A DNA stretch of 7,246 bases. It comes from Escherichia coli. Lineage in GTDB: Bacteria > Pseudomonadota > Gammaproteobacteria > Enterobacterales > Enterobacteriaceae. Shown in pieces: positions 961 to 1,394 of this stretch. Location of the stretch: assembly GCF_003334765.1 (NCBI RefSeq), contig NZ_QOWT01000061.1. One strand, given 5' to 3'. Position numbers and translations under genes: made by a program. How positions within the stretch are numbered: the first letter of the stretch is position 1; every line of letters begins with the position of its first letter. Under the pieces are notes generated by a model. The model did not search any database. It was not told the origin of the DNA and saw only the letters and a list, made by a program, of their open reading frames with translations.

Positions 961-1189
961 CTTTCTTTTTTATCGGAGATCCGAAAAAAGGTAGTCACGG
1001 ATCTTCCTCTCCCGCCGCACAGCGCCATCTCCCGTCAGCACAACATGTAGTGCTGAATTTGGCTGTTAATGACACTATATGTTGTGTCATCTCCCTGACC
1101 TGTGATGCGCCGCGCAGGGGCGGAAAACAGTGATATGATGATTTTCTCAGCGTGGTACACTTCCGGAAAGTTGTGATATTCATGAAAGT

Positions 1190-1394
1190 CGGATCTGACG
1201 GAAACGGGAATGCGATAATTACGGTTTGTTTTTATAAGTCAGATTTTGATTTTTATTGGTTAACATAACGCAAGGTAAAATAAATAATGCTTACTAAAAG
1301 TAAGATAACAGTATGTGTATTTACGCGCTGATTTTTGCATCATAATAATATATACTTATATGCATACCTGAAGTGTGTCAAAAAGAGGTGTACT
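1190..1394 (+). promoter_or_regulatory. Putative ccd operon promoter/operator region (AT-rich)
   Basis: Strongly AT-rich stretch directly upstream of ccdA, with a TTGCAT hexamer near 1335 and TATACT/TATA-like elements at 1350-1365. ccd operons are autoregulated by CcdA-CcdB binding upstream (established knowledge); exact sites are not resolved here. Confidence 0.35.

Follow-up and report, generated by a model that had tools for sequence, protein, structure and literature searches.

In the stretch of Escherichia coli DNA analyzed here, a window of 7,246 nucleotides from contig NZ_QOWT01000061.1, the divergent vapB and ccdA genes are separated by 593 bp of DNA in which three TGTGAT-type strings (at 1100-1190) are followed by an AT-rich tract. 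The question raised by this locus is what such a long intergenic region contains, the initial annotation having suggested a protein-binding array, a small RNA or a remnant origin. Comparison with other plasmids and with published loci indicates that the region is already known from F-type ResD loci, where it is called rfsF/oriV1, and that the ccd operator comes after it. We consider it likely that 1100-1190 is the middle of a block of about 300 bp (~956-1250) that constitutes the cis-acting ResD/rfsF multimer-resolution region, its flank having an accessory or regulatory role. The elements of the locus are as follows:

146-801, minus strand: vapC/vapB, the left neighbors of the gap.
802-1394: the vapB-ccdA gap, 593 bp, made of three joined modules.
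802-955: vapBC-proximal module, with palindromes of the type GGATATG-N5/7-CATATCC at 822-842 and 936-953 and a 24-nt imperfect palindrome at 869-919.
~956-1250: conserved rfsF/oriV1-type block, ~300 bp, non-coding.
~1282-1394, plus strand: F-type ccd promoter/operator module, the 113 bp before ccdA.
1395-1613, plus strand: ccdA (NCBIfam CcdA, 163.7 bits, equivalog-level).
1615-1920, plus strand: ccdB (NCBIfam CcdB, 214.2 bits).
1921-2730, plus strand: resD, encoding a 269-aa tyrosine recombinase with 94.7% identity to F ResD.

The gap had been described as unusually large for two divergent operons, and it is indeed large, as a result of three separate modules standing one after the other rather than of a single element filling it. 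When 802-1394 was used as a megablast query, 4193 plasmid records matched it, only 84 of them over at least 80% of its length, and the matches split the gap into a part that goes with vapBC (802-992), a very widespread part (~976/994-1207) and a part found with F-type ccd (1207-1394); some other plasmids match only positions 1-191 of the query. The leftmost module (802-955) is presumed to be the vapBC promoter/operator and lies outside the conserved rfsF block, and motifs resembling these palindromes are also found in vapB-adjacent homologs. On the other side, ccdA-ccdB-resD (1395-2730) is an operon served by the conserved block upstream. The best family matches of its ResD product in NCBIfam are Xer-like tyrosine recombinases, with scores (76-85 bits) under the curated cut-offs.

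The recombination site itself could be placed precisely:

977-1004: rfsF core, ResD crossover site, AGATCCGAAA-AAAGGTAG-TCACGGATCT, with 10-bp inverted arms and a variable 8-bp center.

A pattern for rfsF, AGATCCGNAANNNNNNNNTTNCGGATCT, consisting of two 10-bp inverted repeats and a variable 8-bp spacer, has been given by Xu et al. (PMC8299605), who equate this site with the rfsF of O'Connor et al. (1986) and report that pOX38 and a Klebsiella virulence plasmid fuse reversibly at the 28-bp site; strand exchange at rfsF by ResD-family, Xer-like tyrosine recombinases, in a ResD-dependent and recA-independent manner, is published for F and Klebsiella plasmids (PMC8299605). The window holds a single match to this pattern, where none is expected by chance, and it falls at 977-1004, with one deviation (TC for TT): the sequence there reads AGATCCGAAAAAAGGTAGTCACGGATCT and fits the arms AGATCCGNAA and TTNCGGATCT around an 8-bp center. 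The published coordinates agree with this position. The rfsF of the IncI1 plasmid R64 is located at nt 43,620 (PMC8004404), and the RepFIA region of F is described in the pEC958 paper as starting at nt 45,922 with two rfsF sites, at which ResD acts, and continuing with oriV-1, ccdAB and resD (PMC4398462); in our alignment both nucleotides correspond to the first A of AGATCCG, which is position 977 of the window. Among 41 homologous sequences, the 7-nt arms are exactly 14 nt apart in 36, with 29 different spacers and 23 central hexamers. With the core match at 977-1004, the recombination site proper is therefore about 100 bp to the left of 1100-1190.

The initial annotation had named a lack of conservation among related plasmids as an argument against a function for the gap. 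Comparative alignment of 802-1394 gave the opposite result, since the segment is strongly conserved, non-coding DNA present in thousands of plasmid records. The stretch 976-1210 was found in at least 5000 of them, with full-length matches down to ~70% identity in distant blastn searches, and the blastn matches of the block include Klebsiella, Salmonella (pSLT type), Enterobacter and Raoultella. It is present in 2373 of 5426 complete E. coli genomes (44%), where 2668 of its 2699 places are on plasmids, and in none of the 59 full-block matches sampled from these genomes did it carry an annotated feature. A search with the most conserved words in one genome per species gave 29 more loci across Enterobacterales, in Citrobacter, Cedecea, Brenneria, Rahnella, Ewingella, Pantoea and others. 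At all loci with enough flanking sequence, except L006 and L012, tblastn located a ResD homolog (81-100% amino acid identity) 0.7-2.7 kb downstream on the same strand. The cargo between block and recombinase varies (ccdAB, ccdAB plus extra ORFs, or unrelated hypothetical genes); in an IncI plasmid the block is followed by a hypothetical gene and a site-specific integrase, without ccd, and in locus L039 resD begins ~30 nt past the invariant island described below, the part equivalent to 1172-1250 being missing. Since resD is downstream and co-oriented whatever the cargo, the conserved block is the upstream cis region of resD operons.

This constant association also bears on the suggestion that the gap holds a remnant origin. 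The DNA of the block goes in the literature by the name oriV-1, that is, a replication origin, and this name runs counter to an accessory role in resolution. The corresponding explanation would be that the block is a vestigial F-type primary origin (oriV1/ori-1), fired by PifC/RepC in F and inactive here, where vapBC has replaced pifC. It draws on the pEC958 annotation, which puts oriV-1 between the rfsF sites and ccdAB and has it depend on a RepC that is missing (PMC4398462), and on the identity of the window to F across 1005-1250, which is 76-97% (40% in 1172-1186). The F DNA to which the segment is homologous is called rfsF/oriV-1 (PMC4398462), so that on grounds of homology the term "remnant origin" is fair, but it gives no reason for the conservation. 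The block is found in thousands of IncF, IncI, IncK and IncR plasmids without an adjoining pifC, and its only constant neighbor is resD. In the 7.2 kb window neither pifC nor repC adjoins it: vapBC is on that side, and the pifC-side flank of F is absent, homology with F beginning only at 976/977. No DnaA box (up to one mismatch) was detected in 976-1370 and no iterons were found by a repeat search; AT-rich DNA is present, but is accounted for by the ccd operator. In addition, the RepFIA replication functions were dispensable in the TraDIS analysis of pEC958 (PMC4398462). We thus regard a vestigial origin as an improbable explanation of the locus; an origin role may exist in F, and it cannot explain why the block is conserved.

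The likeness to the RepFIA region of F is nevertheless close, in the order of elements (core, flank, ccdA, ccdB, resD), in ResD and in sequence, with 79% identity in the core, 76% over 1005-1099, 97% over 1100-1171 and 87-89% in the tail and ccd operator. The two loci differ in the left neighbor, which is pifC in F and vapBC here, as in IncR backbones (PMC9412624), and in the 8-bp center of the core (AAAGGTAG here, ACCCCAAG in F). In an alignment, F (NC_002483, pifC-ccdA spacer), an IncI-gamma plasmid and the window are near-identical over 976-1207. Within this frame the core center is IncR/Klebsiella-like, 1005-1186 is IncI-like (95-99% identity) and the sequence is F-like from ~1200; over 1100-1171 the identity is 97% with F and 99% with the IncI plasmid. 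Because 1005-1186 is IncI-like rather than F-like, this copy of the rfsF block is a mosaic. rfsF has been recognized as a boundary of mosaic exchange in IncI1 and IncR plasmids (PMC8004404, PMC9412624), and in our set the right edge of the invariant island is a recurrent mosaic junction, seen in L038 (as a switch of haplotype), in L039 (where resD follows directly), in H77 and in H149; one more natural junction was found at ATGTTGTG (L029). With these five junctions in mind, TTCCGGAA and TATATGTT were considered as crossover sites, and the idea was dropped, the 28-bp core being the experimentally supported site (PMC8299605). The junctions at invariant islands may reflect homologous exchange within the islands, and are therefore not taken as evidence of further crossover sites.

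The flank to the right of the core, 1005-1250, was compared in 38-40 homologs. Its conservation is concentrated in islands split by hypervariable stretches, and the main sites are the following:

1039-1052 and 1073-1086: 14-nt motif pair, CACAACATGTAGTG and CACTATATGTTGTG, inverted, 20 nt apart, 93% complementary.
1101-1105: conserved island, yGTGA.
1123-1127: conserved island, GAAAA.
1151-1169: invariant 19-bp island CGTGGTACACTTCCGGAAA, which holds the 8-bp palindrome TTCCGGAA (1161-1168).
1185-1196, plus strand: AAAGTCGGATCT, third copy of the rfsF arm (CGGATCT at 1190), in right-arm orientation and with its own GATC.
1197-1250, plus strand: block tail, with CGGAAAC at 1199-1205, GATAATT at 1214-1220 (consensus GGTAATT) and a diverged match to GTGGTTATATGGCTGCTTATTATCA.

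The conserved parts of the motif pair are CACAAnATGTAG (1039-1050) and, in the inverted copy (1073-1086), the end ATGTTGTG. The pair is retained in most homologs, although in two of them (L016 and L031) it is in direct orientation. A hairpin formed by 1039-1052 and 1073-1086 was considered and set aside, as complementarity within sequences (10.0 of 14 positions) is barely over that between sequences (9.3). This scarcity of covariation within sequences and the direct orientation in two homologs make the pair look like a repeated binding motif, so that it probably represents two copies of a protein-binding sequence.

The invariant island deserves separate mention. The genome scan was seeded with the island and TCGGATC, so that their invariance in L009-L037 is partly by construction, and the eight BLAST-derived sequences provide an independent test. 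In these, GTACACTTCCGGAAA is identical in all eight, the sole variation in the island being at position 1154, in F, and TCGGATC is likewise invariant. The island and the consensus right arm of the rfsF core (GTTCCGGATCT) have TTCCGGA in common, and the distance between core and island is 176-181 bp in 33 of 36 homologs and 190-192 bp, about one helical turn more, in the other three. To the right of the island, a variable AT-rich stretch of 15-19 nt, which contains the third of the TGTGAT-type strings, leads to the site at 1185-1196. The conserved form of 1185-1195 is AAAnTCGGATC; in the repeat search, AGATCCGA and TCGGATCT are perfectly complementary, and the site is invariant in alignment A2, with a spacing of 19 nt from the island in every sequence (17-21 nt were allowed in the scan). 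The tail after GGTAATT is diverged in the ccd-linked version. Over the block, CGGA[AT] occurs 7.8 times per 310 bp, compared with 1.2 expected from composition. The truly recurring and conserved motif of this DNA is thus CGGA(A/T), in the forms CGGA(A/T), TTCCGGA and CGGATCT. The proposal of a protein-binding array can be kept in this modified form: the flank has the look of a region bound at several sites, and the repeated unit would be this motif family and not TGTGAT.

The TGTGAT-type strings do exist where they had been described:

1101-1107, plus strand: motif 1, TGTGATG, of which only GTGA (1102-1105) is conserved (consensus yGTGAC).
1130-1141: motif 2, GTGATATGATGA, within 1121-1143 (plus strand), after CGGAAAA.
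1172-1185, plus strand: motif 3, TGTGATATTCATGA, in the variable AT-rich spacer between two invariant sites.

What does not hold is that they form a conserved repeat array exceeding chance. The window contains 11 GTGATR, compared with 8.8 +/- 2.6 in shuffled sequences; three GTGAT inside 85 bp are seen somewhere in 5.7% of Markov-simulated windows (P ~0.06), and the real window has 49 clusters in which some 5-mer occurs three times inside 85 bp. In 36 homologs, GTGAT is retained in six at motif 1, in one at motif 2 and in eight at motif 3. GTGA[TC] is found at the motif 1 position in 22 of 37 sequences. Motif 2 has a conserved skeleton, G-T-TG-TkATT (1132-1143), whose variable positions change together (GAT..GAT, GCT..GCT, GGT..GGT), and motif 3, which sits where the block varies most, exists in 31 variants among 36 homologs; identity to F falls to 40% over 1172-1186, as against 97% over 1100-1171. 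A 16-nt direct repeat, CGGAAAACAGTGATAT (1121-1136) and CGGAAAGTTGTGATAT (1164-1179), 81% identical, takes in motifs 2 and 3, and comparison of homologs indicates that its conserved portion is CGGAAA, not GTGAT. An iteron-like array built on TGTGAT was therefore rejected, its recurrence being at chance level and its core word so rarely kept. The strings are incidental: motif 1 overlaps the conserved GTGA, and motifs 2 and 3 are lineage-specific. These unremarkable repeat statistics could also be read as meaning that a short word simply recurs in unconstrained spacer DNA. As an account of the whole region that reading is refuted and retains next to no probability, since few non-coding plasmid sequences in our sample are as well conserved as the DNA in which the words lie; the words are due to chance, but the DNA is constrained.

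If the sites are functional, they might serve transcription only. According to this explanation, 1151-1196 would be a pair of operators flanking the -10 element (1172-1180) of a resD-operon promoter repressed by ResD, with no role in synapsis. The sequence TGTGATATT at 1172-1180 resembles, by eye, an extended -10 (TGn followed by GATATT), and the AT-rich stretch is retained between the two invariant sites. The D protein of F was reportedly described by Lane et al. in 1986 as both a resolvase and a transcriptional repressor. In pSLT, the genes from ccdAB to rsdB belong to a single operon, and deletion of the ccd promoter does not abolish RsdB production (PMC5065971), which leaves room for a promoter upstream and hints at a second one for rsdB. 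On the other hand, many homologs have a poor -10-like hexamer or none, and a sigma-70 promoter scan gave no good match inside the block in the window, in R64 or in the IncR homolog, leaving 1172-1180 itself unflagged. Neither the conservation of 1005-1150 nor the fixed distance to the core would be explained by a promoter, and L039 lacks the segment altogether. A role limited to promoter and operator thus seems rather unlikely to us, and 1172-1180 is kept as a possible -10 of a rightward promoter, a weak lead based on its resemblance to the consensus. A scan with the IHF consensus gave matches at chance level and nothing in 1100-1190.

The possibility that 1100-1394 encodes a small regulatory RNA or a structured 5' leader was also analyzed. 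The length and conservation of this intergenic DNA would fit such an element, as would the presence of one frame that is open in 29 of 38 homologs. The Rfam scan of the whole window gave only a chance-level CrcZ match (16.7 bits, the gathering score being 95), RNAalifold with 36 homologs of 1095-1259 predicted a fold of -2.67 kcal/mol with zero covarying pairs, and no terminator was detected in 1005-1394 of the window. Two terminator-like hairpins were observed in the IncR version only, when the window, R64 and the IncR homolog were scanned. Invariant blocks alternating with hypervariable spacers are, moreover, the pattern expected of conserved DNA sites. Taken together, we consider the RNA proposal very improbable, given that no credible Rfam match was obtained for the window, no conserved fold or covariation for 1095-1259 and no terminator for 1005-1394. 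With respect to coding capacity, the initial view that there is no convincing ORF in the gap was borne out. Despite the frame open in most homologs, the 19-nt island is invariant also at wobble positions; a small ORF starting at GTG 1152 was rejected because of this invariance at every codon position and of an in-frame stop (TGA at 1131) in the window.

The AT-rich tract, the remaining part of the gap, is real, with a GC content of 0.297 in 1200-1394 compared with 0.481 for the window, and consists of the block tail (1197-1250) and, for the most part, of the known CcdA/CcdB operator. In F, the ccdAB promoter/operator spans 113 bp, in which CcdA has eight sites and the central palindromes are GTATAC (PMC5389731). 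The corresponding segment of the window, 1282-1394, is 87% identical to it (89% for 1251-1394) and likewise has GTATAC-like palindromes directly upstream of ccdA; as read from the sequence, the central ones are imperfect here (ATATAC, GCATAC and GTGTAC), unlike those of F. The promoter scan gave promoter-like matches at 1260-1288 and 1320-1349.

Returning to the resolution region that we favor for the block, its parts could work together as follows. ResD would act at the 28-bp core (977-1004), and the ~200 bp to its right, with 1100-1190 included, would be accessory or regulatory DNA. This DNA offers what appear to be extra arm-like copies (CGGAAA at 1121, TTCCGGAA at 1161-1168, CGGATCT at 1190 and CGGAAA at 1199) besides the pair at 1039-1086. 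ResD, a host architectural protein or both probably bind these arm-like sites, which are held at a near-fixed distance from the core, and such binding would give rise to a defined synapse favoring the resolution of dimers. A further effect may be repression of the transcription that runs rightward into ccdAB-resD, with a possible -10 in the AT-rich 1172-1180. We infer the putative accessory or operator role of 1005-1250 from conservation, motif content and spacing. Xu et al. treat recombination at the 28-bp sites alone and do not invoke the flank, so that the latter may be dispensable for strand exchange (PMC8299605).

Several known systems can be compared with this locus. The rfsF-resD regions of IncI1 plasmids (R64, ColIb-P9) and of IncR plasmids, and the crs/rsdB region of Salmonella virulence plasmids (pSDL2/pSLT), have the same block with a resD homolog downstream; the IncI and IncR loci differ in having hypothetical genes as cargo, and pSLT in having ccdAB plus two ORFs and a block identity of ~72%. 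Other parallels are by analogy only. ColE1 cer and pSC101 psi also combine a Xer-like recombinase with a core of ~28 bp that has ~200 bp of conserved DNA to one side of it, and there this DNA binds accessory proteins that make recombination selective for resolution. Cer and psi have no sequence similarity to the block, no ArgR, PepA or ArcA sites were identified here and the recombinase is in this case plasmid-encoded; an accessory role of the flank would be a parallel drawn from those systems. Extra recombinase-type repeats beside the crossover site are a further likeness, in this case to TnpI/IRS of Tn4430 and to the res sites of the Tn3 family. In both, the additional repeats are bound by the recombinase, which doubles as a repressor. 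In detail the recombinases are not related, the Tn3 resolvase belonging to the serine recombinases, and the layout of the motifs differs. A more specific version of our reading, which we put forward tentatively and hold to be possible rather than probable, is that the ~250 bp of 1005-1250 could be the accessory arm of a Xer-like resolution system in which the island CGTGGTACACTTCCGGAAA and the CGGATCT/CGGAAA half-sites, ~180 bp (or one turn more) from the core, would bind ResD or a host factor and so provide resolution selectivity and autoregulation; the hypervariable core center would act as a plasmid-specific "barcode" limiting fusion between plasmids, and oriV1 would be a secondary, F-specific use of the same DNA.

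The practical yield of this analysis is modest, in that known elements account for the gap and the proposal of a TGTGAT array is to be dropped. Yet the block is widespread: about 44% of complete E. coli genomes have it, as do thousands of resistance and virulence plasmids of the IncF, IncI and IncR types, and it goes unannotated in the 59 full-block RefSeq matches sampled. Fusion mediated by rfsF mobilizes Klebsiella virulence plasmids (PMC8299605), and knowing how the flank controls the direction and efficiency of ResD would therefore help to predict the formation of hybrid plasmids.

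The block of conserved non-coding DNA (window 976-1260) was found in 2373 of the 5426 complete E. coli genomes in RefSeq, where 31 of its 2699 places were chromosomal. None of 59 sampled RefSeq E. coli records with the full block had a feature annotated over it, and one short partial match overlapped a hypothetical-protein CDS.

To the left of the block lies a set of palindromes:

window 822-842, 869-919 and 936-953, upstream of vapB: palindromes of the GGATATG-N5/7-CATATCC type and a 24-nt imperfect palindrome

Words resembling these also adjoin vapB in other loci, and the set is likely to be the VapB operator and not a recombination site. 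Downstream of the block in the IncI plasmid R64 (positions 385-475 of that locus), GTTATC/GATAAC occurs four times ahead of the first gene, together with several words that resemble GTGATGATG. In IncI plasmids these elements occupy the position held in the window by the ccd operator, and the GTTATC/GATAAC region of R64 may be an operator array for a non-ccd version of the operon.

Within the block, the variable bases of the skeleton GnTnTGnT (window 1132-1139) shift jointly in the aligned columns of the homologues. The joint changes are identities (GATATGAT, GCTTTGCT, GGTGTGGT) and not complements, and these bases look like a co-evolving short direct repeat.

In several independent plasmids, the right edge of TTCCGGAAA (window 1161-1169), a sequence in the invariant 19-bp island, is the exact point at which the lineage switches or homology is lost:

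homologous locus L038, 3165-3175
homologous locus L039, 2035-2045, with the start of resD about 30 nt past TTCCGGAAA
database match H77
database match H149

Homologous exchange within the island may account for these junctions, or else the system may act at a second site there. Scaffold NZ_KN046820.1 of Klebsiella pneumoniae ATCC 13883 carries two copies of the block, L029 and L030, in opposite orientations:

L029, 6990-7180: without the rfsF core, its homology starting abruptly at ATGTTGTG

From ATGTTGTG to TTCCGGAAA, L029 and L030 have the same sequence, and they diverge on either side.

The arm motif CGGATCT is present three times, each time with a GATC (Dam) site inside it (window 978-981, 1000-1003 and 1192-1195), and these GATC positions are kept across homologues. 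Speculatively, the Dam methylation state could affect binding of the recombinase ResD after replication.

When the centre of the rfsF core (window 984-997) was compared at the same position in the 40 homologous loci, its sequence proved hypervariable and its length constant, with 29 distinct 14-nt spacers and 23 distinct central hexamers among 36 homologues. Spacer type did not follow the haplotype on the right-hand side of the core: R64 combines an IncI-type flank with the F spacer, and pO157 an F-type flank with an IncI-like spacer. This hypervariable centre could be a code, specific to each plasmid, that sets compatibility in recombination by ResD.
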